Below are positions 11,597-24,875 of a DNA stretch of 64,000 nt, one piece after another. Every line of letters begins with the position of its first letter. The stretch's first letter is position 1. This DNA is from Promethearchaeota archaeon (GTDB taxonomy: Archaea; Asgardarchaeota; Lokiarchaeia; Sigyniarchaeales; SOKP01). The stretch is from the NCBI GenBank assembly GCA_019894975.1, contig JAGXNO010000016.1:1-64000 (forward strand), written 5' to 3'. The notes beneath the pieces were generated by a model. The model was not told the origin of the DNA. It saw only the letters and a program-made list of their open reading frames with translations, and did not search any database. Made by a program: the position numbers and the translations under genes.

Positions 11597-11833
11597 TTAC
11601 TTTACTGCTTCAAAATAGATATACCACTGCTCGTCATCTTCAATGAATTCTGTTCCTAAATGTTTATGCTTAGTTTTAGCTAAATCTCGCGGAACAGATT
11701 CGCTTGCGGGTTTGTAGTCTGTTATTACTTTTAATACTGTACCAGGTCTCATTTTCATAAGCTGCTTTTTAGTTTTTAAAGCAGGTACAGGGCATACAGA
11801 GCCACAGACATTCAATTCCATATCAAAATTCAT
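11597..11833 (-). CDS. tusA: TusA-family sulfur carrier (second copy)
   Basis: L..CGSVCPVP.LKTKK motif, 78 aa; GAGGT RBS upstream. Confidence 0.92.
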   Translation of the reverse strand: MNFDMELNVCGSVCPVPALKTKKQLMKMRPGTVLKVITDYKPASESVPRDLAKTKHKHLGTEFIEDDEQWYIYFEAVK

Positions 11834-11869
11834 AATTTTATACCTCTTGGTAATTTTTATTTTATTTTT

Positions 11870-14338
11870 TTAATCACATATTAAAGTAAATATTGGTTCT
11901 TGCATTCCAGTATCAACCTTCATCTCAACTTGCATTAATTGGGCTAATCGAAGGGCTTCATATCGTACTTTTATAGGTTCTAGATTTAATTTTTTTGCCA
12001 TATCACTGATTGTAGTTGGTCCTTGAAGGGTAATGTAATCTAAAACTTGCTGTCTTGGAGTTTTTTCGAATGTTAAGAGTTCTCGCTTCGATTTAAGATT
12101 TATTGCTTTATTCAATTCTTCTTCATTTACTTCTCCTTTTTCAAATAAACCACTTTTAATGGCGTTATCAATTATTTCTTTTCCTTTATCAGTCCAAACT
12201 ACTACAGTTGTGTAACCCTTTTGAGATCCAACTTCACCTGCAGTTAAATCAGAATAAATCGCAGGAAAATCTTGACAATGTGAACAGAAATGATTACAAC
12301 TCAGACACCTACGCGTTTCCTGTAGAGCCATTTCTTCGTCAAACTTTTGGTCGATTTCTTCAAAACTCCATGCAATTTCTTCAGTCGCATCAGCTAAAGT
12401 CTCGGGTTTTAGTGAATAATCTTTAGGTGGTTTCTTTGGACCTCTGAAAAACATTTTATCTTGCTTATACCTTCCTTCTATTAAACTCTCGCCTTTTAGA
12501 TATCTATCAATTGAAATTGCAGCTTCTTTTCCGTGTGCTATTGCCGCAATAGCTACTGCTTTAGTATTGTTGATAATGTCTCCTCCTGCAAATACACCGG
12601 GCATATTAGTTTCAAACGTCACTTCGTTTACTTTTATCTTATTTCGTTCTTTTTCTAGTTTATTATCAGTAGCAACGTCGATTTGATCAAAATCTACAGC
12701 TTGACCAACAGCAATAACAATAGAATCAATAGGAATTTCATACTCTGAATCCTTGACTTGTTCTAATGATCTTTTTCCTTCTTTATCAGGAGCAGTCCAT
12801 TCAACTTTGTAACAATTCAACACTAATCTGTCATCATTCTTAGTAATTTTAGACGTAGATGTGGTAAAATGATATTCCATAAATTCACGTTCATTCTCAG
12901 GGATCTCTTTCAGAGTTAATTCAAGTTGTTCTTCAGACATGATATCGACAAGATGAATTTTTTCAGCACCTAATCTGAGCGCTGTTTGAGCAACATCGAC
13001 AGCAACAGGACCTCCACCGATTATGCCTACTGTTTTTCCCTCGAATTCTTCCTTGTTTTCCCAGTAGCGGTATTTTCTATCCATAAGAAATGTTATTGCT
13101 ACATGAACATTGGGTAAATTTTCACCTTCTAAGTGTAATGTTCTTGGCTTATATTGACCTGTAGCTATAAAAATTGCTTCAAATCCATCATTTTTTAAGT
13201 CATCAATCGTCATTTCGGGACCTAATGGTTTGTTAAGTACAATATCGACTCCAGAGTTTTTTATCATACTTACATCGTAATCTAATACATAATTTGGTAA
13301 TCGAAATTGCGGTACTCCGAATCTCAACATTCCGCCTGTTTGATCAGACTTTTCAAAAATCGTTGGTGCATACCCCATTCCTTTCAGAAAATATCCTGCT
13401 GTCAATCCAGCTGGACCAGATCCTATTATCGCAACTTTTTTTGCATTCTTCTTAGGTTTATTTGTAGATTTTGAATCAATCTTTTTCGATTGTTCAATTT
13501 CCCATTCTGTTACAAATTTCTTTAACTCCCGTATTGCTACAGGATGATCATCACCAATTAACGTACAACCATGTTCGCATTCATTAGTACAAATTCTTCC
13601 ACAAATCGAGGGAAGTGGATTATTTTCACGAATTAAATCTACAGCTTCTTGGTATTGTCCTTGTCTTATCAAAGATATATATCCCTGTGCATTCACACCT
13701 GATGGGCAACCACTACTGCATGGTGAGTATACCAATCCTTTATCGGATTGCTCAGTTCGCATATGAGAATTACAAAACAAACCAATCTTTAATATTTCCC
13801 TGTTCATATCTTCTTCTAGCTCAGCAGCACCTCTCATTTCACATGGAACACCTACAATTCCTACTGGTTCGAATGTCTCTCCGACTAAATCTACTAATTT
13901 TTCTAGAACTCCTGAACGGCCATAAACGACACCTGCTTTCTGTACGGCTTCATCTGGGTCGGACACTATATCTGCTTGAGGTCTTTCATCTACGTTTTGA
14001 ACCATCACAATTTCAGCAAGTGATTCGTTCTCTAATAGATTCTTTACTAATGTAGTTACCACGCCACCACTTGCCGCTTTTGATAAAATTTCAGGATTTT
14101 TGCTTCTCAATGAATACACAACTTTCGGTTGCTTTTCTTCAAATTTTTTCTGGATAACTTGAGGACAGCTTTGGTAACATTTACCACAATCTTGTCCATT
14201 TCTCTCAAGAATACAATAGTCTTTTAATGCTGGGCGTAGAATACTCATCTCAATATGTTTACACGAACCAGCACATAGTCCACATCCTTGACATAATCCT
14301 GCATCAATAATTTCTTTTCTTAATAATTCAAAACTCAT
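11870..14338 (-). CDS. Ferredoxin + FrhB/FdhB-like subunit with inserted GltD-type NAD(P)H flavoprotein and C-terminal winged HTH
   Basis: N-terminal CxxCxxCxxxC ferredoxin; FrhB motifs SGGVVT, GVPC, GLFC; GltD module (PC..GCP, ICGRIC..ECE..C, GSGPAG, GGMLRFGVP.FRLP, GGGPVA.D, VFAGGD, RRCLSC); then FrhB C-terminus (CSHCQD..SDLTAGEVGS..G.T.VVVWTDKG) and a wHTH. Confidence 0.88.
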   Translation of the reverse strand: MSFELLRKEIIDAGLCQGCGLCAGSCKHIEMSILRPALKDYCILERNGQDCGKCYQSCPQVIQKKFEEKQPKVVYSLRSKNPEILSKAASGGVVTTLVKNLLENESLAEIVMVQNVDERPQADIVSDPDEAVQKAGVVYGRSGVLEKLVDLVGETFEPVGIVGVPCEMRGAAELEEDMNREILKIGLFCNSHMRTEQSDKGLVYSPCSSGCPSGVNAQGYISLIRQGQYQEAVDLIRENNPLPSICGRICTNECEHGCTLIGDDHPVAIRELKKFVTEWEIEQSKKIDSKSTNKPKKNAKKVAIIGSGPAGLTAGYFLKGMGYAPTIFEKSDQTGGMLRFGVPQFRLPNYVLDYDVSMIKNSGVDIVLNKPLGPEMTIDDLKNDGFEAIFIATGQYKPRTLHLEGENLPNVHVAITFLMDRKYRYWENKEEFEGKTVGIIGGGPVAVDVAQTALRLGAEKIHLVDIMSEEQLELTLKEIPENEREFMEYHFTTSTSKITKNDDRLVLNCYKVEWTAPDKEGKRSLEQVKDSEYEIPIDSIVIAVGQAVDFDQIDVATDNKLEKERNKIKVNEVTFETNMPGVFAGGDIINNTKAVAIAAIAHGKEAAISIDRYLKGESLIEGRYKQDKMFFRGPKKPPKDYSLKPETLADATEEIAWSFEEIDQKFDEEMALQETRRCLSCNHFCSHCQDFPAIYSDLTAGEVGSQKGYTTVVVWTDKGKEIIDNAIKSGLFEKGEVNEEELNKAINLKSKRELLTFEKTPRQQVLDYITLQGPTTISDMAKKLNLEPIKVRYEALRLAQLMQVEMKVDTGMQEPIFTLICD

Positions 14339-14340
14339 CT

Positions 14341-15576
14341 TTATCCCTCTCTAATTTTAATTTCTTTTATAATCCCTTCTGAATCTATGCTATATTCTAC
14401 AGAACCATTTTTATAGGTTCCTTCAACCACTTCAAACACATGGGTTTTGTAATCTTCAAGATTATCTTCTGCATTGATTTTTGATTTAAATCCTCCAAAA
14501 AATACGTTTGATAAATTCATATTTCCCGCAATTTTTCGAATTTCTTCTGTTATTTCTTTATATTGTTCTGCGTTTTCATTTTTTATAGTATCATGTAGTT
14601 TTTCTTCTAAGGTTAAGAGATCTTTTCTATATTTTTTTGCCTGTTCACTAACCTCAATATCATTAGCTTGTTCATAAGTTTCAATTATCTTAAGTGTGAA
14701 TGAAATTGATTTATCTCCTCCTAGGAGTCCTGCAATTAAAGGTAATTCTTCAATTAATCTTCCCGTAAATAAATCTTCTAATAGGGTACCTGAGGATGGA
14801 ATTCTTCCTTTTGGCAAACCAGAGGTGGTTAATGTAAATCTAAAGAAATTTCCAAGGATATCTGGTAAGCTTCCGGTTACATCATCATCTTCATCAGCTA
14901 ATTTGTCTGTTGCTCCTTTTACAGAATGTTCAGTAGCAACTTCAATATTTCCCATGAGTGTTCCAAACATGCCAAGCATACGGATTCCAGGTCTTTCAAC
15001 TAATTTTTTACAACCTCTGCATGGTGTATTGTAATCAATACATCGTTCTTTACATTCTCTAGAAACAAAACCATTGCAAAGAAATCCTAAATCATTAAAA
15101 CAAGGCTCCTCATCTTCTAGTTCAATTTGACGATGTACATCATCTAAGTAATCACACGTAGCTCTTCTGGTGCACAGTTCACATAAATTTTTTGGTTTTG
15201 TTAACTCTTCCCCATTAATCATAGATAATAACTCTTCAACTTCCCCTAAACAACCTTCGATTTCAATAATATTGTCAATTAAACCTTTCAATGGAGTTAT
15301 ATCATGTCCACGCTGGTTTGCTAATGCAAAAACGCCACCTGTAACAGTGCAACTACCATAAGCTATAACCTTATTTGCATTAGATCTTATCTTACTGAGT
15401 AATTCTTTGTCATCAGGGAGTAAATATCCTGTTATCACAGCTGTTTCTATTTTTTCTTCTTTCCATGTTTTAGGATCTTTGATATATTCAACGTTTAAAT
15501 CTGAATTTAATTTCAATAGCAATGATTCGTTAAAACATTTATTACAACCATTAAATTGAAAAACTTTAACATCCAT
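14341..15576 (-). CDS. mvhG: MvhG/FrhG-like Fe-S protein (hydrogenase small-subunit homologue) with C-terminal extension
   Basis: GCNKC, YGSC..TGG, EGC, LCELC.R, CF...GFLC.G, C..RC...PCRGC cysteine pattern. Confidence 0.8.
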   Translation of the reverse strand: MDVKVFQFNGCNKCFNESLLLKLNSDLNVEYIKDPKTWKEEKIETAVITGYLLPDDKELLSKIRSNANKVIAYGSCTVTGGVFALANQRGHDITPLKGLIDNIIEIEGCLGEVEELLSMINGEELTKPKNLCELCTRRATCDYLDDVHRQIELEDEEPCFNDLGFLCNGFVSRECKERCIDYNTPCRGCKKLVERPGIRMLGMFGTLMGNIEVATEHSVKGATDKLADEDDDVTGSLPDILGNFFRFTLTTSGLPKGRIPSSGTLLEDLFTGRLIEELPLIAGLLGGDKSISFTLKIIETYEQANDIEVSEQAKKYRKDLLTLEEKLHDTIKNENAEQYKEITEEIRKIAGNMNLSNVFFGGFKSKINAEDNLEDYKTHVFEVVEGTYKNGSVEYSIDSEGIIKEIKIREG

Positions 15577-16018
15577 CTTTTATCGTCCCCTCTTCTTTAA
15601 TTGCGGTTGTTAGCCTGTCTACTATATCTTCAAAATCTCCAACCGCCGTTTCACCTTCAGCAGCTCTAGAAGTATATTGATTAATGAACTGATCACTATA
15701 ACCTAATTCCTTAAACAATTTTTTCATCAGCTTTATTCTATGCATTGACAAAATATTTCCATTGAAAAAATGACAAGCCCCTAAACAACATCCAACACAC
15801 GCAACAGCATCAGCACCGTTATTTAAAGCGTCCATAATTTGGATAGGACCAATTTGACCTGTACATTGTACTCGTATGATTCTTATAGCAGGGTTATAAC
15901 CCATTCGAGCAACTCCAGCAGTGTTAGCAGAACCCTGACCGCATTCATTACACATAAAAACTACTATATTTTGAATTTTTTCTTGAATTAATCCATCAGG
16001 TGTTTCACAGTCGCTCAT
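15566..16018 (-). CDS. mvhD: MvhD [2Fe-2S] adaptor subunit
   Basis: FMCNEC, IRIIRVQCTG, GADAV..VGC..G.CHF..GN; ATG at 16018 overlaps the hdrA stop (ATGA). Confidence 0.93.
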   Translation of the reverse strand: MSDCETPDGLIQEKIQNIVVFMCNECGQGSANTAGVARMGYNPAIRIIRVQCTGQIGPIQIMDALNNGADAVACVGCCLGACHFFNGNILSMHRIKLMKKLFKELGYSDQFINQYTSRAAEGETAVGDFEDIVDRLTTAIKEEGTIKDGC

Positions 16019-18045
16019 TCGCAAACAATACCTCCGCCAGATACGGCGATTATTTCATCTAATAATTGATCATCACTAAAATTTATTAACTGAATTGCTG
16101 CTGTAGGGCACACTGGCATACACATTCCACAAGATTTACAAGCAACCTCGTTTACGGTAGGTATTCCACTTTCATCAATATCAATCGCTGCTGGAGCACA
16201 TACAGTTTTACAAAGTCCACATTTTACACATAAATCATAATCTACTGAAGGAACCAGCATCTCTTTTTCAATATATCCTCTAACTAAAGGAGCAGCAGCT
16301 AATGCGGCAGCACTTCCAGCATGAGCCACAGTCTCAGAGATATCTTTAGGTCCCTGTATTGTACCTGCTAAGAAAATACCCCCCTTACTACTAAGAGTAG
16401 GATTCATCTTTATATGAAATTCTTTTAAAAATCCTTCTTGTGATCTCAGAACATGAAGCTTCGAACCAAGTGGACCAATTCCCTCAGGAGGAACCATAGC
16501 AGCAGAAAGTACCACTAGATCTGCATTTAATTGTAAAGGTGTTTGACTTAACGTATCCTCAACAATTACTTTTAACTCTCCTGATATTGGATCTCTAATA
16601 ATTTCAGATGGCCTTCCACGTATAAACCTAACTCCAATTTCTTGAGCAGATTTGTATAATTCTTCAAAGTTTAATCCTGGGGTTCTTATATCAATATAAC
16701 ATATCGATACATCCATATCAGGATACATTTCTTTTATGATTCTCGCATTTTTAATAGCGAACTTACAACATACTCCAGTACAATATTTATTTCCAACTTG
16801 GTCATTTCGACTTCCAACACATTGGATCATAACAACACTTTCAGGAATTTTTCCATCAGTGGGTCTTAGAACTTGACTATTAGTAAGTGACGTTGGAGAT
16901 AACATTCTCTCTAGCTTTAATTGAGTAATTACATCTTCATATCCTTCTTGTCCATAATGATAAGGTTCGATTTCAGTAGGATCATATTCTTGATACCCCG
17001 CAGCAACAATTATTGAGCCAACTTTTACGGTTTTGGTTTCTGATTCCATAGAGAAATCAACTGCTTGAACTGGGCAAATATTAATACATGTATTGCACTC
17101 AATACAATTTTTCTTATCCCTGACAAATGTGGCTGGTATTGCTTGAGGATACGCTTTATAGATAGCATTTCTCATAGACATCCCCTTATCCCATTCACTG
17201 GGTACTTCTACAGGACAGTTTGCTGCGCAATCACCACATGAAGTACAATTATCTTTAACATATCGCGGTTTTATTTCAATCTCAATCTCAAAATTTCCTA
17301 ATGAGCCTTCTACGCTTTTAACTTGAGCATTTGTATAGAGTTCTATTAAGGGGTGATTCGCAACTCCGTTAGTAAGTGGAGATATGGAACACTGTGGACA
17401 TTCTAATGTTGGGAATGTTTTATTCAATCGTGTCATATGACCGCCTATAGTAGAATCTCTTTCCACTAAAACTACTGGAATACCTAATTCTGCCATATCA
17501 AAGGCAGATCGTAACCCAGCTATACCTGCACCGATAACTAATGCCGCTTTAGTAGTTTCTACCCTCCTTGTTTCGACATCTTCCAATTTCCTTGATCGAT
17601 TCACTCCTGCTTCAACAAGTCTCATAGCTTTTTGAGTCGCTTTTTCTTTTTCTTTTTGGTGAACCCAACTATCGTACTCTCTTACATTAACCTGTTGATG
17701 ACGATGTTTGTTCAATCCAACTTCTTCAATTGCTTTAGCAAAAGTTCTTCCATGCTGGTTTTTAGAGCATGAAGCAACTACAGTTCTATTCACTCCGAGT
17801 TCTTCTATAGAATCTTTGACCATCTGTACTCCCGGCTTAGAGCACATAAACATATAATGCTCAGCTTTCACTACATTTGGTAATGTCGAAGCATATTCCG
17901 CAACTTTAGAAACGTCCACAGTTCCAGCAATGTTGTGCCCACAGTGACACACGAATACTCCGATTCGTGGTTCCTCGCTTTCTTCAGTCTCAACCATTTC
18001 CCCTAAATTTTCGGTTTCTTTAACTTTTCCTTCTTTTACAGTCAA
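16015..18045 (-). CDS. hdrA: Heterodisulfide reductase subunit A
   Basis: GVFVCHCG, GAGIAG, KTFPTLEC, inserted 2x[4Fe-4S], IQCVGSR..YC..VCC, FIRGRP, GPKDI, C-terminal ferredoxin; TTG start. Confidence 0.97.
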   Translation of the reverse strand: MTVKEGKVKETENLGEMVETEESEEPRIGVFVCHCGHNIAGTVDVSKVAEYASTLPNVVKAEHYMFMCSKPGVQMVKDSIEELGVNRTVVASCSKNQHGRTFAKAIEEVGLNKHRHQQVNVREYDSWVHQKEKEKATQKAMRLVEAGVNRSRKLEDVETRRVETTKAALVIGAGIAGLRSAFDMAELGIPVVLVERDSTIGGHMTRLNKTFPTLECPQCSISPLTNGVANHPLIELYTNAQVKSVEGSLGNFEIEIEIKPRYVKDNCTSCGDCAANCPVEVPSEWDKGMSMRNAIYKAYPQAIPATFVRDKKNCIECNTCINICPVQAVDFSMESETKTVKVGSIIVAAGYQEYDPTEIEPYHYGQEGYEDVITQLKLERMLSPTSLTNSQVLRPTDGKIPESVVMIQCVGSRNDQVGNKYCTGVCCKFAIKNARIIKEMYPDMDVSICYIDIRTPGLNFEELYKSAQEIGVRFIRGRPSEIIRDPISGELKVIVEDTLSQTPLQLNADLVVLSAAMVPPEGIGPLGSKLHVLRSQEGFLKEFHIKMNPTLSSKGGIFLAGTIQGPKDISETVAHAGSAAALAAAPLVRGYIEKEMLVPSVDYDLCVKCGLCKTVCAPAAIDIDESGIPTVNEVACKSCGMCMPVCPTAAIQLINFSDDQLLDEIIAVSGGGIVCE

Positions 18046-18046
18046 G

Positions 18047-18964
18047 TTAAATTGCCTCCTCTTCTTTTTCTAATTCTTCTCCCCCAAAAATATACTCTCT
18101 ACCCATTAATTGGTATTGAAGACCAATGAATTTTTGATCCATACCCATACAATAAGCAGTTAGTTGGGAAAGATGAATAACTGGATAATCATAATTACAA
18201 CTTTTATTTTTGTTTAGATAATCTTGACCTGTCTCATATTGTAAATGACAAAATGGACAAATATCAAGTATAATATCAGGTTTGACCTCATCGATATTTT
18301 TCATTTTTTCTCCGAAAATCGTCATACTTGCATTTCCGTCATAAGCTTTTACTCCACCACCAGCACCACAGCAAGTTAGTTGCTCTTTGAACCTAACTGA
18401 TTCGACCCCTAGGGCTTCCACAAATTCTTCTACAATTGTAGGGCTCTCAGAACTTTCGATCTCTCTAATTCTAGTTGGTTTTAAAAAATGGCAACCATAA
18501 TGGATTGCGGCTCGAATATTTACTTTTCTTACGATAACATCTTCTATACCCCATGGCCCAACTTCATACCCTAAAACTTCTGCTACATGACGTACATCAA
18601 TAGTACCTTTAAATTCGTAATCTCCGATTTCTTTTAATCGTTCGTTAACCATATTTCTATGTTCTTCATTTTCTTTCAAATGCTTATTAACTTCTTGAAG
18701 TGTACCAAAACAACCATTACATACAGTCAAAATATCCGCATCCAACTGTTCTGCTATACATAGATTTCTTGCCGCAGCAACCATCCAATCAACCTTGTTA
18801 AACGATCGAAAAACTCCTGGAGCCGGGCAGCATGTTGCTCTCTCCATATCTAAGAGTTCATATCCTAATTTATCCATTACAAATTTTGTTGATTTTTCTA
18901 TAGCAGGATATCGATTTGGCATCAAACATCCTAAAAAGAAAGCAAATGTCTTTTCTTTTACCAT
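18047..18964 (-). CDS. hdrB: Heterodisulfide reductase subunit B
   Basis: Two CCG domains: FLGC, CCPAPG, CNGC, HYGCH, CCGAGGG, CPFC. Confidence 0.97.
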   Translation of the reverse strand: MVKEKTFAFFLGCLMPNRYPAIEKSTKFVMDKLGYELLDMERATCCPAPGVFRSFNKVDWMVAAARNLCIAEQLDADILTVCNGCFGTLQEVNKHLKENEEHRNMVNERLKEIGDYEFKGTIDVRHVAEVLGYEVGPWGIEDVIVRKVNIRAAIHYGCHFLKPTRIREIESSESPTIVEEFVEALGVESVRFKEQLTCCGAGGGVKAYDGNASMTIFGEKMKNIDEVKPDIILDICPFCHLQYETGQDYLNKNKSCNYDYPVIHLSQLTAYCMGMDQKFIGLQYQLMGREYIFGGEELEKEEEAI

Positions 18965-18967
18965 ATT

Positions 18968-19522
18968 TTACTCATCCTCTTCCTTTTTTTCCTCCTTCAC
19001 GGGAGGTAAATCAAACATTTTATCTTCAATATTTTTTAAATCTTTATCATCCCCCTCCTGTTTGAATCTAAAAGCAGTAGGTGGAAGTTCTTCTAATCCT
19101 AATTCGACTCTTCGTTTTCGTACCTCATCATTTATAGGTACAGCATGTCCAAAATTCTTCAAATAACCTACAACAGCCCTATGGTTAGGCGAGATATTTC
19201 CTTTTTTAGTCGCATAATTTCGCAACTCCATAATTACATCTGTAGGTCTTACATCACGCGGACATCGTTCATAACATTGATAACATGTAGTACAGAGCCA
19301 AATATCTGGATCTTCTAATACTGATAAATCTCCCAAGACCACTTTTCTAATAATTGAACGGGTCTTTAAGGCAGTCCATCTTCCACTCTCGCAACTTGCG
19401 GTACACGTTCCACATTGGATACACTGCCAAATGTTAGATTTTCTCTCAATATTTTTAAAAAATTCCTTATCAAAATCATCGTCTGTCTTATATTCCCTTG
19501 ATTCTTCTTTTACATCAGACGT
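18968..19522 (-). CDS. hdrC: Heterodisulfide reductase subunit C (apparent ACG start)
   Basis: The frame stays open 60 codons upstream of the ORF-track start and contains CIQCGTCTASC; second motif WLCTTCYQCYERCPR. The first codon after the in-frame TGA TAA is ACG (19522), 6 nt downstream of GGTGA. Confidence 0.92.
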   Translation of the reverse strand, partial: TSDVKEESREYKTDDDFDKEFFKNIERKSNIWQCIQCGTCTASCESGRWTALKTRSIIRKVVLGDLSVLEDPDIWLCTTCYQCYERCPRDVRPTDVIMELRNYATKKGNISPNHRAVVGYLKNFGHAVPINDEVRKRRVELGLEELPPTAFRFKQEGDDKDLKNIEDKMFDLPPVKEEKKEEDE

Positions 19523-19575
19523 TTATCATCACCTTTATTTAAATATAAAATAAAAAAAAAATTGTTTTAATTAAT

Positions 19576-19998
19576 TTATAAACTAACTATTCGTCCACCA
19601 TTACTCATTTCTAAAAATGTGGCGGCTCCAACAGGTTCTTCAGCAATATCAATTATTTGTTCTGCCTTAATTTTCATTAAATCCATAGTCATCTGACATG
19701 GATATAATTTTAAATTACCACTCTCGACACCATCTTTAATCAATTGCCATGGATCTTCAATTCCAAATTTCTTCATCCTTTTACCAAATATCTTTGCCCC
19801 CATACCCTTCATAGGGGTAGGCATTCCAGCAACCTTAGGTTTAAACTTTTTAGTTAATAAGTTCAATCCCCAAAAGGTAAAGAAAAAATTCATTTTAATA
19901 TCCATAGCATCACCTGTTGAACCAAGGATAGCCATCATTGCAAATTTCTCGAATGACTTATCCTTGACAATAAAATTTATTGTTTCTGATTCTGCCAT
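19576..19998 (-). CDS. DsrE2-like (DsrE/DsrF/DsrH-like) sulfurtransferase
   Basis: FFTFWGL and YPCQMTMDLM..GAATFL motifs; GAGGTG RBS 6 nt before ATG 19998. Confidence 0.88.
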   Translation of the reverse strand: MAESETINFIVKDKSFEKFAMMAILGSTGDAMDIKMNFFFTFWGLNLLTKKFKPKVAGMPTPMKGMGAKIFGKRMKKFGIEDPWQLIKDGVESGNLKLYPCQMTMDLMKIKAEQIIDIAEEPVGAATFLEMSNGGRIVSL

Positions 19999-20111
19999 AT
20001 ATGACACCTCTTTTTTTTTTTTTATTATTTTTTTTGTTTAGTAGTAATTTATTTCTGGTATTACCAGGTTTTACTAAAAATCTTTTAAGATTAATTTTTT
20101 TAATGTTTAAG

Positions 20112-20453
20112 CTACATCCAAGAAATGACCTTAGGAGTAGCGTCTATAACATCTATAAGATCGTCGTATTCTATAGATTTAATTTTACTATGAATAAATT
20201 CTGGATCTATTCCACGAGCTATTGTATCAGATTTCATTGCAAATACAGCAACATCTAAATCAAGTAGTTCTTCCATTTGTTTGGGAATTTTTCCCTTTGT
20301 TGAAATACCTATTACTCCGTCTTGAATTAATGCTAATCCAAGTTTAGTGTTCTTTTTAATCTGACTTTTTAATATGGGTAGTAATCTCCTCAATTGATTT
20401 CCTGCCAATCCACTAAATCCAAATAAATATATCATATCAAGATTGTTTGTCAT
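20112..20453 (-). CDS. dsrH: DsrH/TusB family sulfur relay protein
   Basis: LIQDGV..., D..ARGI, I.YDDLID, terminal ISW. Confidence 0.88.
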   Translation of the reverse strand: MTNNLDMIYLFGFSGLAGNQLRRLLPILKSQIKKNTKLGLALIQDGVIGISTKGKIPKQMEELLDLDVAVFAMKSDTIARGIDPEFIHSKIKSIEYDDLIDVIDATPKVISWM

Positions 20454-20469
20454 TATCTTTTATCCTCCA

Positions 20470-20838
20470 TTAAAATCTAAAGCTTGTATCAGCATTGGCA
20501 ATTAACTCCGTTAATTCATCGTAGTTTATGACTTTCAGGTTTTCATATTCGGTTAAGTCATCCTTTGTCATTCCTGCTTCAGCTAAGGCAGATTCAATAA
20601 GATACACTTCTAAATCAGACAAGTCTGCCATTTCTAATACCTCTGTCAAAGGATCCATCCCAACAGCTTCTGGATTGCAATGCTTATTGAATAGATACAC
20701 AGCATCACCTGTTAATACAACCTTACAATCAATTATTTCTCCAAGAGCAGTGAATCCTGAACCAATCCTAATTGCTTCAATTGCCGAATTTCTCCCTATA
20801 GGGGATTGATCGCTTATAACTACTACTGATTCTATCAT
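20470..20838 (-). CDS. dsrF: DsrF/TusC family sulfur relay protein
   Basis: SP.G...A.EAIR, GDAVY, ESAL..AG, terminal FRF; lies between dsrE and dsrH. Confidence 0.85.
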   Translation of the reverse strand: MIESVVVISDQSPIGRNSAIEAIRIGSGFTALGEIIDCKVVLTGDAVYLFNKHCNPEAVGMDPLTEVLEMADLSDLEVYLIESALAEAGMTKDDLTEYENLKVINYDELTELIANADTSFRF

Positions 20839-20842
20839 TTTT

Positions 20843-21211
20843 CTATCCTCCCGTACCAAATACTAATAATTTATCTGCTTCTATTGCCCAATTTGAAAAG
20901 TCTCCTAATCCTTCTTCAGTCGCACCTTCAATGAATTCCGGTTCTTTTAATCCTGTAATACTAACCCATGTGCTACAACCCGCAACTGGAATGCTGTTTT
21001 CCCTGCTAAATTGTTCTATTTTCTCTGGAATGTTTCGAATTGAGGATCCGCAACTTATTTCTTTTTTAAGATTGTATACTCCTGTACCAAAGAAAAATAT
21101 CCCTGTTATTTCATGTCCCTTTCTAATCGCGGCTTTCCCTATTTCGATTAGCGTATCGACTGCTTGATATTTGTAAGGTTCTGTGCTAATAAAGAAAACA
21201 TATTTAGACAT
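20843..21211 (-). CDS. dsrE: DsrE/TusD family sulfur relay protein
   Basis: EPY..., KGH.ITGIFF.G.GVYN, candidate active-site Cys in VAGCSTW, GLGDF..ADKLLVF. Confidence 0.88.
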   Translation of the reverse strand: MSKYVFFISTEPYKYQAVDTLIEIGKAAIRKGHEITGIFFFGTGVYNLKKEISCGSSIRNIPEKIEQFSRENSIPVAGCSTWVSITGLKEPEFIEGATEEGLGDFSNWAIEADKLLVFGTGG

Positions 21212-21237
21212 AATCTATTTACTCCGCACTAAAGATT

Positions 21238-21462
21238 CTAAGCTTTCTTAATTATGAAAATTAAATTGCCATTATCTTCTTTAAGCTCAACTAATTCATC
21301 GCCAATTTTATTCAATAAGGCGGGAATATCTTTTTTTGCTCCGACATCGTCAACAATTACCTCAATGACTTGACCAGAACTCATGGTTTTCAATTCCTTC
21401 TTTGTCTTCAATACCGGCATTGGACATTTTAGTCCAGTATAATCAACTGTTTTATCAACCAT
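21238..21462 (-). CDS. tusA: TusA-family sulfur carrier
   Basis: D.TGLKCPMPVLKTKK..DD.GAKKDIP. Confidence 0.95.
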   Translation of the reverse strand: MVDKTVDYTGLKCPMPVLKTKKELKTMSSGQVIEVIVDDVGAKKDIPALLNKIGDELVELKEDNGNLIFIIKKA

Positions 21463-21507
21463 TTTTTTCAACCTTTTTAGTTTTTTTTAGTTTTTTTTGT
21501 TCTATTT

Positions 21508-21533
21508 ATGTCATCGTTTTCTAAAAATGACAT
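21508..21533. promoter_or_regulatory. Inverted repeat ATGTCAT-N12-ATGACAT, candidate operator
   Basis: Perfect 7-bp arms with inner TTTT/AAAA symmetry, lying between a TTTAAATA box (~21561-21568, minus strand) and the tusA start. Confidence 0.5.
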
Positions 21534-21738
21534 TCATTGTAGAATAAAAATGTGATATAGTATTTAAACCATAGTTTTTTGCGCTATAAACGATCCATTT
21601 ATTTAGCAAATATCACTATATAAATCAAAGAAAATAGTATAAAAAATTATAAGTCTAGATTTCTTATGATTACTTGAAACTTAAATAAATAATTAAGTAA
21701 TTATTAAATATTGAAAGAAATAAATAAGGGATTAAAAA

Positions 21739-22233
21739 ATGGTAGTTACTAATTCAGCAAATAAGATAGTTGATGAAATCGATAAGCAAATTCTCGAACT
21801 GTTACAAGAAGATGCAAAAATTACAATTAAACAAATTTCAGAAAAAATTGAAGAAAATTTGGATGAAAAGAAAAGCCATACAGCGATAAGATCTCGGATT
21901 CAAAGATTAGAGAAAGTATTAATTAAAAAATACGTTGCTTTAATTGACTGTCGTCAGTTAGGGTATCGAGAAATGGTGATGGCATCTCTTAGATTGAACA
22001 CTACTAAGCCATTAGATTTAGTCAAGAAAGAGATTGAGAGGATGGAAAAGATAAAATATGCTTATCAGGTTACAGGAGAATATCCTTTATTTATAATGGC
22101 AAAGTGTCTTAATCATCAAGATTCTATGGGCTTAATTGAAACTCTTCGTAATCTTCCTGGAGTAGAGGAAGTGAAAACTGAAATCGTGATGGATCGAATA
22201 AAAGAGGACCATTCAATTATTATTCCGGACTAG
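21739..22233 (+). CDS. Lrp/AsnC family transcriptional regulator
   Basis: DEIDKQILELLQEDA HTH, R.RIQRLE, VTGEYP, C-terminal RAM domain; divergent from the tus/hdr cluster. Confidence 0.93.
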   Translation: MVVTNSANKIVDEIDKQILELLQEDAKITIKQISEKIEENLDEKKSHTAIRSRIQRLEKVLIKKYVALIDCRQLGYREMVMASLRLNTTKPLDLVKKEIERMEKIKYAYQVTGEYPLFIMAKCLNHQDSMGLIETLRNLPGVEEVKTEIVMDRIKEDHSIIIPD

Positions 22234-22808: not shown

Positions 22809-24875
22809 ATGAAAAATAAAACAACAAAATTAGTTATTATATTAATGGTAGGGCTTGTCTTTCCATTAATTCTTACGTCTAATTTCAATTTCAGTAGTGA
22901 ATCTAATTCTAAGATAATTAAACCAGAAGTATCGGGAGGTTACACAGAATCCTATATCCATATTACCGGGGGTAATTGGTCAAGTACAGCTAGTTCCAAA
23001 CCTTGGTGCTATTTTGATAACGGGTATTATATAATTGAAAACGTCACTATTGATGCCAGTAGCTCGCCTACGGGAAGTGGTATCTTTATTGAAAGTTCTG
23101 CTGTTTTTTTTATTATTAGGAACTGCACAATATATAATGCGGGGGGCGGTGTTTTGGATGCGGGAATCAGATTAAATACTGCAAGCAATGGACAGATATA
23201 TAATAATACATGTTTCAATAATGGGAAATATGGAATCGTTCTTTATTTTTATTGTGATGATAATATAATTTCTGGAAATGTTGTTACTAACAGTCAGTAT
23301 GTGGGGTTATATCTGGTAAGTACATGTAATAATAACGATATTATTGGCAATGATGTAAATAATAATTCCAATTCCGGAATATCTCTATATAATAACTGTA
23401 ATAATAACAACATCACCGGAAATACTGCACGCGATAATGGTAATAGGGGAATACAATTGCATACTACATGTAATTCTAACACTTTCTCAGGTAATATTGT
23501 TAACGATAACAATTATGGGATAGATATTACAACCTCGGACAACAACTATTTTACAAAAAATGAAGTATACGAAAACTCACAGAGTGGGATATATTTAAGC
23601 GGTTCGGAAAATAATAATATTACTGAAAACAACTTAGATACAAATGAAAAGTATGGAATAGAGATAAAATCTAGCTCCATATGGAATAATATTACGAGAA
23701 ATACTGTAAATGATAACACATTGATAGGGATTTATTTACAAACCACTAGTGATAACAATTTAATTGAAAATAATACTATAAATAGAAATGATTTAGGGAT
23801 ATTGCTTGATCAGAGTGATAACAATAATGTCACAGATAATATTTTGCATGATAATAGTAGGTGCATTTTAGAAATTGCTTCTACAGGAAATATCATAATA
23901 AATAACGATTGTACGTCCACCACTGTGCAAGAACCAATCTTTATTGATGGCATTGCCACTGGTGTTGGTGCGCACAATTGGACTTGGGCAATTAATCAAG
24001 GTTTATGTACGGGTTCAGGAACAAAGGAACTCCCATATGTCATCGAAAATCTTAAGATAAGTGGTTTCGGCGTTATGAAAGGTATTGAGATAAGAAATTC
24101 AGATGTCTATTTTATCATTCAAGATTGTGAGATATATCATTGTACTACAGGAGGCATCTATTTTAATAATGTCACTAATAGTCAATTGATTGAGAATAAC
24201 TGTTCTAACAATTATCAAGGGATAAATCTATATGACAAATGCGATTTCAATGAAATCATAGGGAATGTAGCAAATGATAATTCTAATCATGGGATATTTA
24301 TTGGTGATTATTGCGATAATAATACAATTTCATATAATATTGCATCTTACAATGATGAAGCAGGGATAGTTTTAGCTGGAGGAGATCTCAGTAGCTATAA
24401 TAATACCATTTCAGAAAACACAGTAAACAACAACAATTACGGAATACGATTTGGAGAAGGTGATTTCCATTTTAATAAAATCTCGGGAAACATTATAAAG
24501 AGTAATAATATCGGAATCTCTATAGAAGATACTGGGTGTAGTAACAACTCAATCTACAATAATATCTTTCTGGAAAATGGGATTCATGCTATTGATAATG
24601 GGATTGATAACAAATGGAATATCTCCACTATTGGGAATTATTGGGATAACCATACTGGGCCAGATTCTAATAAGGATGGAATTGTCGATAATCCTTATAA
24701 CTACATCGGTGGTAGTGCTGGAAGTATAGATTATCTCCCAATAGCCGAAGGTGTTTCTGGAAATCCATTACCTCCAGGGGTTATTGCCGTAATCATAGTT
24801 GTTTCCGTAGCGGGAGGACTAGGATTAATAGGTGCTGTTTATATGTTTCTTATTAAGCGAAGAACAACAAAATAA
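22809..24875 (+). CDS. NosD/PbH1 right-handed beta-helix cell-surface protein, membrane anchored
   Basis: Signal peptide, two N/GI-rich beta-helix blocks, GNYWD..GPD..DGIVD.PY, C-terminal TM + KRR. Confidence 0.9.
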   Translation: MKNKTTKLVIILMVGLVFPLILTSNFNFSSESNSKIIKPEVSGGYTESYIHITGGNWSSTASSKPWCYFDNGYYIIENVTIDASSSPTGSGIFIESSAVFFIIRNCTIYNAGGGVLDAGIRLNTASNGQIYNNTCFNNGKYGIVLYFYCDDNIISGNVVTNSQYVGLYLVSTCNNNDIIGNDVNNNSNSGISLYNNCNNNNITGNTARDNGNRGIQLHTTCNSNTFSGNIVNDNNYGIDITTSDNNYFTKNEVYENSQSGIYLSGSENNNITENNLDTNEKYGIEIKSSSIWNNITRNTVNDNTLIGIYLQTTSDNNLIENNTINRNDLGILLDQSDNNNVTDNILHDNSRCILEIASTGNIIINNDCTSTTVQEPIFIDGIATGVGAHNWTWAINQGLCTGSGTKELPYVIENLKISGFGVMKGIEIRNSDVYFIIQDCEIYHCTTGGIYFNNVTNSQLIENNCSNNYQGINLYDKCDFNEIIGNVANDNSNHGIFIGDYCDNNTISYNIASYNDEAGIVLAGGDLSSYNNTISENTVNNNNYGIRFGEGDFHFNKISGNIIKSNNIGISIEDTGCSNNSIYNNIFLENGIHAIDNGIDNKWNISTIGNYWDNHTGPDSNKDGIVDNPYNYIGGSAGSIDYLPIAEGVSGNPLPPGVIAVIIVVSVAGGLGLIGAVYMFLIKRRTTK

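Follow-up and report, generated by a model that had tools for sequence, protein, structure and literature searches.

A conserved gene cluster pairing TusA/DsrE-family sulfur carriers with a predicted hydrogenase-independent, methanogen-type heterodisulfide reductase in Lokiarchaeia

Gene content of the tus/dsr-hdr block

We analyzed a 64,000-nt stretch of contig JAGXNO010000016.1 from a Promethearchaeota archaeon (hereafter, the window), focusing on a gene block at positions 11597-22233 in which genes for sulfur carrier proteins adjoin those for a complex related to the heterodisulfide reductase (Hdr) of methanogens. The window is AT-rich (GC content of ~31%), and the loci nearest to it all come from metagenome-assembled genomes (MAGs) of Promethearchaeota (Lokiarchaeia). 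Between positions 11597 and 21471, the minus strand carries 12 open reading frames (ORFs) in the same direction, in the order tusA1-dsrE-dsrF-dsrH-dsrE2B-hdrC-hdrB-hdrA-mvhD-mvhG'-frhB-tusA2, with an NfnB/GltD module inserted in frhB. All twelve were named by Pfam and NCBIfam searches, in agreement with the initial annotation, which had also placed them divergently from an Lrp regulator; the respective lrp gene (Lrp/AsnC family; 21739-22233, plus strand; Pfam HTH_AsnC and AsnC_trans_reg) is separated from tusA1 by a 267-bp gap. From hdrC to tusA2, neighboring genes overlap or are separated by gaps of at most 36 bp, and, as originally stated, the 12 genes include none for a hydrogenase catalytic subunit, Flx, DsrC/DsrAB or a lipoate-binding protein. 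Most likely, the block encodes one soluble redox system of two parts, namely, a hydrogenase-independent Hdr complex, the predicted composition of which is well supported, and the adjoining sulfur carriers.

The catalytic subunit of the complex, HdrB (18047-18964; this and all other genes of the block are on the minus strand), aligns end to end with the methanogen HdrB chains 9SFI_C/5ODC_B (E 1e-92) at ~45-50% identity and scores 372 bits against the TIGR03288 cut-off of 345. Both of its CCG domains (PF02754, two copies) are intact, with the motifs CCPAPG..CNGC and CCGAGGG..CPFC, as had been claimed. The same holds for the canonical motifs of HdrA (16015-18045; 676 aa; best NCBIfam match HdrA2, 730 bits), a full-length flavoprotein of the bifurcating type with the N-terminal cluster, the TrxR-like FAD domain, and both the inserted and the C-terminal ferredoxin domains, residues 25-666 of which align to 9SFI_A/5ODC_A (E 1e-190). 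The protein has a cysteine at the position occupied by selenocysteine in some methanogens, and contains the LKLERM and KNARI motifs. The corresponding LExER and KNA positions (E356/K409-type residues, with the numbering taken from the aligned chain rather than from the 5ODC coordinates) have been tied to electron bifurcation (PMC12054007). The [2Fe-2S] connector MvhD/FlpD is encoded next (15566-16024; PF02662, E 1.5e-31). By these alignments, the Hdr core is a member of the methanogen-type HdrABC-MvhD family.

The hdrC gene itself (18968-19522; TIGR03290) stands as proposed initially, with the qualification that its first Fe-S motif requires a noncanonical start codon. The reading frame contains no ATG, GTG or TTG ahead of the first CxxCxxCxxxC motif, and the start chosen by the ORF tool, GTG at 19342, would delete this motif. 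An alternative candidate, ACG at 19520-19522, located directly after in-frame stops and 6-7 nt behind a GGTGAT Shine-Dalgarno sequence, retains both CxxCxxCxxxC motifs. Across the homologous loci, hdrC starts with ATG in 30 cases, ACG in 17, ATA in 4 and GTG in 3. Because ACG is found in 17 loci from independent assemblies, it is recurrent rather than an error of this assembly, and translation of hdrC appears to start at this codon. In loci of the ACG type, an out-of-frame four-codon mini-ORF (ATG ATA AAC GTC TGA) overlaps the hdrC start. The T-tract noted earlier between the dsrE2B and hdrC genes is present as well (T10 at 19552-19561, on the strand of the genes); it is a possible archaeal terminator or attenuator, and orthologous loci likewise have a T-rich spacer.

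The sulfur carrier genes encode TusA, a DsrE/TusD subunit with an active-site cysteine, and the F and H subunits of a DsrEFH/TusBCD relay. TusA1 (21238-21471; PF01206, E 7e-25) is a one-cysteine TusA in which Cys16 of the CPxP motif is invariant in all 49 orthologs. DsrE (TusD-like; 20843-21211; PF02635), the active-site subunit of DsrEFH, was aligned to 2HY5_A; its Cys79, also invariant (49 of 49 orthologs), falls opposite Cys78 of A. vinosum DsrE. The other two subunits, DsrF (TusC-like; 20470-20859; PF02635), the gene of which overlaps dsrE by 17 bp, and DsrH (TusB-like; 20112-20453; PF04077), score below the NCBIfam equivalog cut-offs (TIGR03010 for DsrF; TIGR03011 for DsrH, 45.6 bits vs. 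49.2), and DsrH is devoid of cysteines in all 49 orthologs. The product of the next gene (19576-20007; PF13686), initially called DsrE2, does belong to this carrier family, but is of the DsrE2B type rather than a plain DsrE2: its best solved relative is 2QS7 (E 1e-15), designated DsrE2B in a previous study (PMC11094781). Its Cys104 is invariant among 57 of 57 orthologs.

The second TusA, TusA2 (11597-11833; PF01206), differs from TusA1 in having two cysteines. The active-site Cys14 is invariant in 52 of 52 orthologs, and a second cysteine is present in 49 of 50, either at position 10, four residues ahead of the active one (CGxxCP; the family of the window, L. ossiferum and one distant relative), or in a C-terminal ECVK motif (MK-D1 and the Thor-type proteins). 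Among close relatives, TusA2 is 84-96% identical, on par with HdrB, and tusA2 invariably closes the hdr operon, irrespective of what becomes of the dsr genes. The trisulfide of DsrC is the substrate reduced by CCG proteins of the DsrK type; by analogy, the two cysteines of TusA2 could be bridged within the molecule by a disulfide or trisulfide, in the way that DsrC serves DsrK.

The predicted electron-input arm

Two further proteins, MvhG' and FrhB, would link MvhD to an electron donor. The 411-aa MvhG' (14341-15576; Oxidored_q6, VhuG-like) had been described as MvhG-like, which is accurate for its residues 1-259: these correspond to MvhG, matching 5ODC_E with a Z-score of 13.6 (VIA-align; AF2 model with a predicted local distance difference test score, pLDDT, of 78) and retaining, in the MvhG alignment, the ligands of all three [4Fe-4S] clusters. 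Residues 263-411 (nt 14341-14790) match the large subunits of [NiFe] hydrogenases (FrhA 6QGT_A, Z 12.9; 4KL8_L, Z 12.0; 5AA5_C, Z 11.9; VIA-align), with 147-149 residues superposed at 2.4-2.6 Å; HycE, NuoD and the MBS large subunit are also among the structural matches. An hhalign comparison with the MvhA of the same genome (residues 41-151) placed GLLGGD of the tail opposite RICGIC, in a weak match (E 4e-4, probability 34%). The tail (~150 aa) contains no cysteine in the window protein and no conserved cysteine among 26 relatives. Judging by the modeled structure, MvhG' is MvhG fused to a nickel-free, cysteine-free relic of a [NiFe] large subunit, which makes the input arm a fossil hydrogenase, with the relic probably serving only to cap or scaffold.

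The adjacent gene (11870-14338) encodes an 822-aa FrhB protein with FrhB_N, Fer4_20, Pyr_redox_2 and FrhB_C domains, initially taken for an FrhB/GltD fusion. Both modules are indeed present, but they are not joined end to end; instead, the GltD module is inserted within FrhB (approximately nt 12287-13756). In an alignment with Thor-type homologs (alignment A1), the GLFC motif (Cys189) of the Thor-type FrhB runs straight into the CxHCxDF motif (Cys685); the Loki FrhB has ~490 added residues between these two cysteines. At its C-terminus, the Loki FrhB has a domain of ~70 aa in common with the insert-free forms. Both in sequence and in predicted fold, the insert most resembles the large, NADPH-binding subunits of Nfn-type transhydrogenases, with matches in the PDB to NfnABC (9BOV_A, 9N5U_A), StnC (8OH5_C) and NfnI (5JCA_L), and the Foldseek matches of the 822-aa model are filled by the GltD/NfnB module. 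On the strength of this homology, the insert is assigned as an NfnB/GltD-type NADPH-FAD-2x[4Fe-4S] module (FAD, flavin adenine dinucleotide).

Variants of this arm were observed in other loci. In two MAGs labeled as Hermod/Hodarchaeota (L016 and L066), there is no match to the FrhB::GltD protein after mvhG'; ~1.2 kb, possibly an insert-free FrhB, precede tusA2, followed by an extra hdrC-hdrB pair with 30-37% identity. In the Sigynarchaeum ortholog of FrhB::GltD (L057:14608-17058), the frame is interrupted by a single TAA, aligned with residue ~499 of the window protein; this codon could be an assembly error, a pseudogene mutation or a case of recoding.

The closest precedent for such an arm is the Elp-Hdr complex (ElpABC-HdrABC; PDB 8RJA/8RIU family) of Methanothermobacter marburgensis, in which a dead catalytic subunit (ElpA, a dead FdhA), an FdhB/FrhB-type subunit and MvhD form an F420H2 input (PMC12350162). 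Elp-Hdr and the block have in common a methanogen-type HdrABC, an MvhD-type [2Fe-2S] connector and a hydrogenase-free arm made of an FrhB/FdhB-type flavoprotein and a dead catalytic relic. The relic of Elp-Hdr comes from FdhA, whereas that of the block comes from a [NiFe] large subunit, so that the design is the same but the family is not, and the block adds the NfnB/GltD insert in FrhB, five sulfur-carrier genes and a nonmethanogen host. The arm is a second, independent case, after Elp-Hdr, of a catalytic subunit that decayed to a scaffold with an FrhB-type flavoprotein taking over, in this case with an NfnB-type NADPH module spliced in besides.

Compared with the MvhAGD-HdrABC complex of methanogens (5ODC, 8RVU), HdrA, HdrB, HdrC, MvhD and the MvhG part of MvhG' are homologous over their full length, with the cluster ligands kept, whereas the Ni-Fe MvhA is missing from the block. 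The genome to which the window belongs (95% complete, 8.6% contamination) encodes two [NiFe] large subunits of this kind, on contigs C93 and C109, each adjoining other Hdr paralogs, and the window's own contig has no match to PF00374. Likewise, the sole MvhA of MK-D1 is encoded 3 Mb from the cluster, and that of L. ossiferum 0.4 Mb away. A region of contig C109 (20000-108000) is dense in HdrA, MvhD, FrhB and CCG paralogs, identified by tblastn with the cluster proteins, along with one MvhAG set. Mcr was not found in the genome, so that the known source of the heterodisulfide of coenzyme M and coenzyme B (CoM-S-S-CoB) is missing.

Conservation, co-inheritance and expression

To examine the conservation of the cluster, we collected 80 loci with HdrB as the query. 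In 28 of these, all 12 genes are present in the same order with at least 40% identity, and 6 further loci have the full order with a more diverged dsrH, for a total of 34 Promethearchaeota loci; among them are loci in the complete P. syntrophicum MK-D1 and L. ossiferum genomes and in a Sigynarchaeum MAG. Nearly all of the remaining Asgard loci are interrupted by contig ends within the cluster. At methanogen and Thermoplasmata loci with HdrB 45-50% identical, the tus, dsr and input-arm neighbors are absent. Almost every Loki locus has an lrp homolog upstream of the cluster; in MK-D1 and L. ossiferum, one separates dsrE2B from hdrC. In Promethearchaeum (MK-D1 L064:1906-6412; L063), a second hdrC-hdrB-hdrA-mvhD-ferredoxin operon is divergent from tusA1, which places the carriers between two Hdr operons.

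The association extends to distant relatives, both Thor-type and unbinned. Thor-type loci have the arrangement hdrCBA-mvhD-mvhG'-frhB-tusA, with an frhB that lacks the insert and, in one locus, dsrEFH directly after. MvhG' defines a very small family, to which 18 of 1.84 billion representative clusters belong at E<1e-30; its two distant members (35-37% identity) with long contigs have dsrE genes upstream and tusA beside hdrCBA-mvhD-mvhG'-frhB. Every context of an mvhG' gene that is long enough to read holds sulfur carriers, and contigs of 2-3 kb for three further queries display the mvhD-mvhG' adjacency alone. The synteny search suggested along with the initial annotation thus found the adjacency to be kept across Lokiarchaeia, Sigynarchaeum and Thor-type relatives, and the proposal does not fail for want of conservation.

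The presence or absence of the two halves was followed through MvhG' and DsrE2B. Of 400 genomes sampled from the phylum, 79 encode MvhG'; in the window's genus, MvhG' and DsrE2B are each encoded in 31 of the 53 genomes. Within the genus, 25 genomes have both, 15 have neither and 12 are discordant, several of the latter having the gene within a few kilobases of a contig start; these genomes are kin rather than independent samples, and no statistic was drawn from the counts. The distribution is the pattern of one accessory module. Given that the 12-gene order recurs in 34 loci and is kept in relatives with 35-37% identity, and that the halves mostly co-occur, chance does not account for the pairing of the sulfur carriers with Hdr, and these genomic patterns support a functional link.

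These observations also bear on whether the dsr/tus and hdr halves might be unrelated neighboring operons, with tusA-dsrEFH representing a TusABCD-type relay for tRNA thiolation. Such a relay would fit the weak TusB- and TusC-type NCBIfam matches, the annotation of the MK-D1 genes as TusA/D/C/B and the T-tract between the halves. However, no TusE/DsrC was found in the genome, the hdr operon itself ends with a second tusA, the adjacency is retained in the 34 loci and, rearranged, in distant relatives, and the halves are mostly present or absent together. We consider this explanation highly improbable, and the notion of two unrelated operons side by side was rejected on synteny and co-inheritance.

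The cluster is transcribed in culture. In the available parts of Table S3 of Imachi et al. 2020, the MK-D1 cluster corresponds to DSAG12_01139-01150, probably extending to 01151, and the 12 rows 01139-01150 have values of 191-348 reads per kilobase per million mapped reads (RPKM), most genes in these parts of the table having ~100-400. The RPKM values in these parts have a very flat dynamic range and reflect transcription, not regulation. The same table gives the FrhB::GltD protein of MK-D1 the name 'sulfide dehydrogenase subunit alpha'. The cluster genes are also covered by metatranscriptome contigs of relatives (90-95% alike; 9-14% of words), and one RNA-library contig of a relative spans the dsrE2B-hdrC spacer, which is a weak hint and no evidence of co-transcription; contigs of this kind convey neither transcript ends nor expression levels.

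Proposed mechanism and competing interpretations

The interpretation that we favor, while giving it somewhat less than an even chance, is that the block encodes a reductase, driven by NADPH/F420H2 and probably bifurcating, that acts on sulfur carried by TusA/DsrE proteins. NADPH and F420H2 are the candidate donors because of the NfnB-type NADPH insert, the FrhB domains, and the F420 biosynthesis genes CofD and CofE present in the genome; bifurcation is suggested because HdrA keeps the residues linked to it. In this scheme, FrhB with its NfnB/GltD insert would accept hydride from NADPH (at the insert) and/or from F420H2 (at FrhB), and the electrons would pass through the three [4Fe-4S] clusters of MvhG' and the [2Fe-2S] cluster of MvhD to the FAD of HdrA. 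By analogy with Mvh-, Fdh- and Elp-Hdr, HdrA would split the electron pair, sending one electron to ferredoxin and the other, via HdrC, to the noncubane clusters of HdrB. There, electrons would be accepted not by CoM-S-S-CoB but by carrier-bound sulfur, possibly a persulfide, trisulfide or disulfide on TusA2. TusA2, the most likely direct partner of HdrB, would receive its sulfur from TusA1 by way of DsrEFH and DsrE2B, and the reaction would yield H2S along with the reduced carrier. In a fermenting syntroph, sulfane sulfur (S0, polysulfide, or the sulfane atom of thiosulfate brought in by the TsuA/TsuB importer) could thereby serve as an electron sink or a sulfur source, with reduced ferredoxin regenerated; a TsuA/YeeE transporter gene adjoins a TusA-like gene in the genome. 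We infer each of these elements, namely, complex formation, donor, acceptor, direction of flow and bifurcation. A more specific and rather doubtful version holds that the 'heterodisulfide' of the lokiarchaeal Hdr is a protein, that is, a persulfide or trisulfide on TusA2, loaded by TusA1, DsrEFH and DsrE2B, and reduced to H2S by HdrB while NADPH/F420H2 is bifurcated to ferredoxin.

Several considerations weigh against carrier-bound sulfur as the acceptor. The standard potentials (E0') are about -320 mV for NADPH, about -270 mV for S0/HS- and -450 mV or lower for ferredoxin, so that bifurcation from NADPH to ferredoxin and a persulfide would be roughly isoenergetic and the thermodynamics are marginal. 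The score of HdrB surpasses the trusted cut-off for CoB-CoM heterodisulfide reductase at the equivalog level, and the HdrB sequence shows no sign of an altered substrate. The usual sulfur acceptor of DsrEFH is DsrC/TusE, for which (PF04358) the genome has no match among 11 candidates scored. The halves are set apart by the T10 tract and, in MK-D1 and L. ossiferum, by an lrp gene, and may be transcribed separately. Several genomes of this genus that are more than 95% complete lack the module, which agrees with an accessory role and offers no pointer to the substrate. MK-D1 was grown without added sulfur oxidants, and in the available parts of its RPKM table, expression of the cluster was unremarkable. 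Finally, homologs of ComD and ComE (sulfopyruvate decarboxylase alpha and beta) are encoded next to each other (C55:65240-66288) and score above the NCBIfam equivalog cut-offs, so that coenzyme M-like thiols may be present; organosulfonate metabolism or an unrecognized thiol cofactor are potential roles of this pair.

The last point raises the question of whether the block might encode a conventional small-molecule heterodisulfide reductase, driven by NADPH/F420H2 and acting on a CoM/CoB-like or another low-molecular-weight thiol pair, with a separate task for TusA and DsrE in supplying sulfur for the synthesis or repair of cofactors, Fe-S clusters or thiol cofactors. The equivalog-level score of HdrB and its ~50% identity to solved methanogen HdrB agree with such an activity, as do the ComD and ComE homologs and the T-tract or lrp gene that parts the two halves; moreover, the ~23 CCG-domain proteins encoded in the genome would suit a thiol/disulfide pool shared by many enzymes. 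However, neither ComA nor McrA was found in the 95% complete genome. Furthermore, tusA2 resides within the hdr operon, matches HdrB in conservation and is retained in relatives with 35% identity, the two halves mostly co-occur or are jointly missing, and biosynthetic thiolation is already covered by a separate ThiF-TusA-ThiI set. A small-molecule substrate therefore strikes us as unlikely. A second DsrEFH set is encoded elsewhere in the genome.

The favored interpretation, reduction of carrier-bound sulfur, can also be set against the sHdr-LbpA system, to which TusA and DsrE-family transferases deliver sulfur and next to which they are encoded (PMC11094781), as in the dsrE3A-dsrE2B-tusA arrangement of M. 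cuprina (PMC4175335). Common to both systems is an Hdr-type CCG enzyme tied genetically to TusA and DsrE-family carriers, including one of the DsrE2B type. The sHdr loci are characterized by hdrC1B1A-hyp-hdrC2B2 (or hdrB3), a short HdrA, the lack of MvhD, and LbpA with its maturation genes, whereas the block has a single hdrCB pair, a full-length HdrA, MvhD, DsrEFH in place of DsrE3, and no LbpA or lipoate genes among the 12. The host being an anaerobic fermenter, the direction in the block is likely reductive.

The opposite direction nevertheless deserves consideration. The same complex run backwards would oxidize sulfide or the sulfane sulfur of the carriers, in the manner of sHdr, or form carrier persulfides from HS- for biosynthesis, with electrons confurcated together with those of reduced ferredoxin onto NADP+/F420. 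Hdr complexes are reversible in methanotrophs, Lokiarchaeia inhabit sulfidic sediment, and, the NADPH-dependent reduction of a persulfide together with ferredoxin being thermodynamically marginal, the reverse would be feasible. In addition, pathways of sulfur oxidation characteristically feature TusA, DsrE-family carriers and DsrEFH (PMC11094781). Yet the defining features of sHdr, a second HdrB/HdrC pair and LbpA, are missing from the cluster, which has a full-length HdrA and MvhD instead; no sulfite-handling genes adjoin it, and the genome contains no sulfite reductase (NIR_SIR) match over the cut-off and no DsrC that could be found. A biosynthetic necessity, for its part, would not be missing from near-complete genomes of the same genus. 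Oxidation or persulfide formation thus appears improbable to us, and reduction of carrier-bound sulfur is retained as the preferred function.

Among reductive systems, FlxABCD-HdrABC and HdrL-MvhD-HdrABC of sulfate reducers and syntrophs share with the block the route from a pyridine-nucleotide input of the GltD/NfnB-like type through MvhD to HdrABC. For Flx-Hdr, the proposed acceptor is likewise a sulfur-carrier protein, DsrC; the block differs in having no Flx-type genes, and no DsrC was found in the genome. The location of the GltD module differs as well: it is inside FrhB in the block, fused to HdrA in HdrL and supplied by FlxA in Flx, and only in the block is the MvhG' wire interposed.

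Hdr complexes abound in Asgard archaea and in many other nonmethanogens, and metabolic models published for MK-D1 and its relatives simply adopt 'MvhADG-HdrABC' together with CoM-S-S-CoB. The conserved, co-inherited pairing of TusA/DsrE proteins with the most methanogen-like Hdr of these genomes names concrete candidate substrates, and the presence of the cluster in cultured organisms (MK-D1 and L. ossiferum) makes the question directly testable. If the sulfur-reducing interpretation is correct, Lokiarchaeia would join sedimentary sulfur cycling, with a bearing on hydrogen-sulfur syntrophy scenarios for eukaryogenesis. If, more specifically, the heterodisulfide is a protein, cultured members of the Asgard archaea, the archaeal group closest to eukaryotes, would possess a sulfane sulfur-dependent, hydrogenase-independent energy module built on a fossilized [NiFe] hydrogenase.

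A literature search, conducted largely outside subscription journals, found no description of this cluster, of its pseudo-hydrogenase or of the insertion in FrhB. A kindred hypothesis, in which H2 is the donor by way of a group 3c [NiFe] hydrogenase, is sketched in a 2025 preprint on Nerearchaeum marumarumayae (bioRxiv 10.1101/2025.07.22.663070, legend to Fig. 5), the accessible passages of which contain no gene-cluster analysis, pseudo-hydrogenase arm or FrhB::GltD protein. As far as these passages go, the hypothesis partly pre-empts the novelty of the present proposal, and the cluster itself is largely undescribed.

Beyond the cluster, contig C88 (L101:2052-4501) encodes a DsrE-TusA pair, followed immediately downstream by genes for a corrinoid-binding protein and a URO-D-type methyltransferase, with an adjoining LysR regulator; through this arrangement, sulfur carriers may be connected with methyl-sulfur or methyltransferase metabolism. 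In the window, downstream of lrp, a gene on the plus strand (22809-24875) encodes a 688-aa NosD/right-handed beta-helix protein, and a 99-aa ORF that matches no family is located between lrp and this NosD-type gene.

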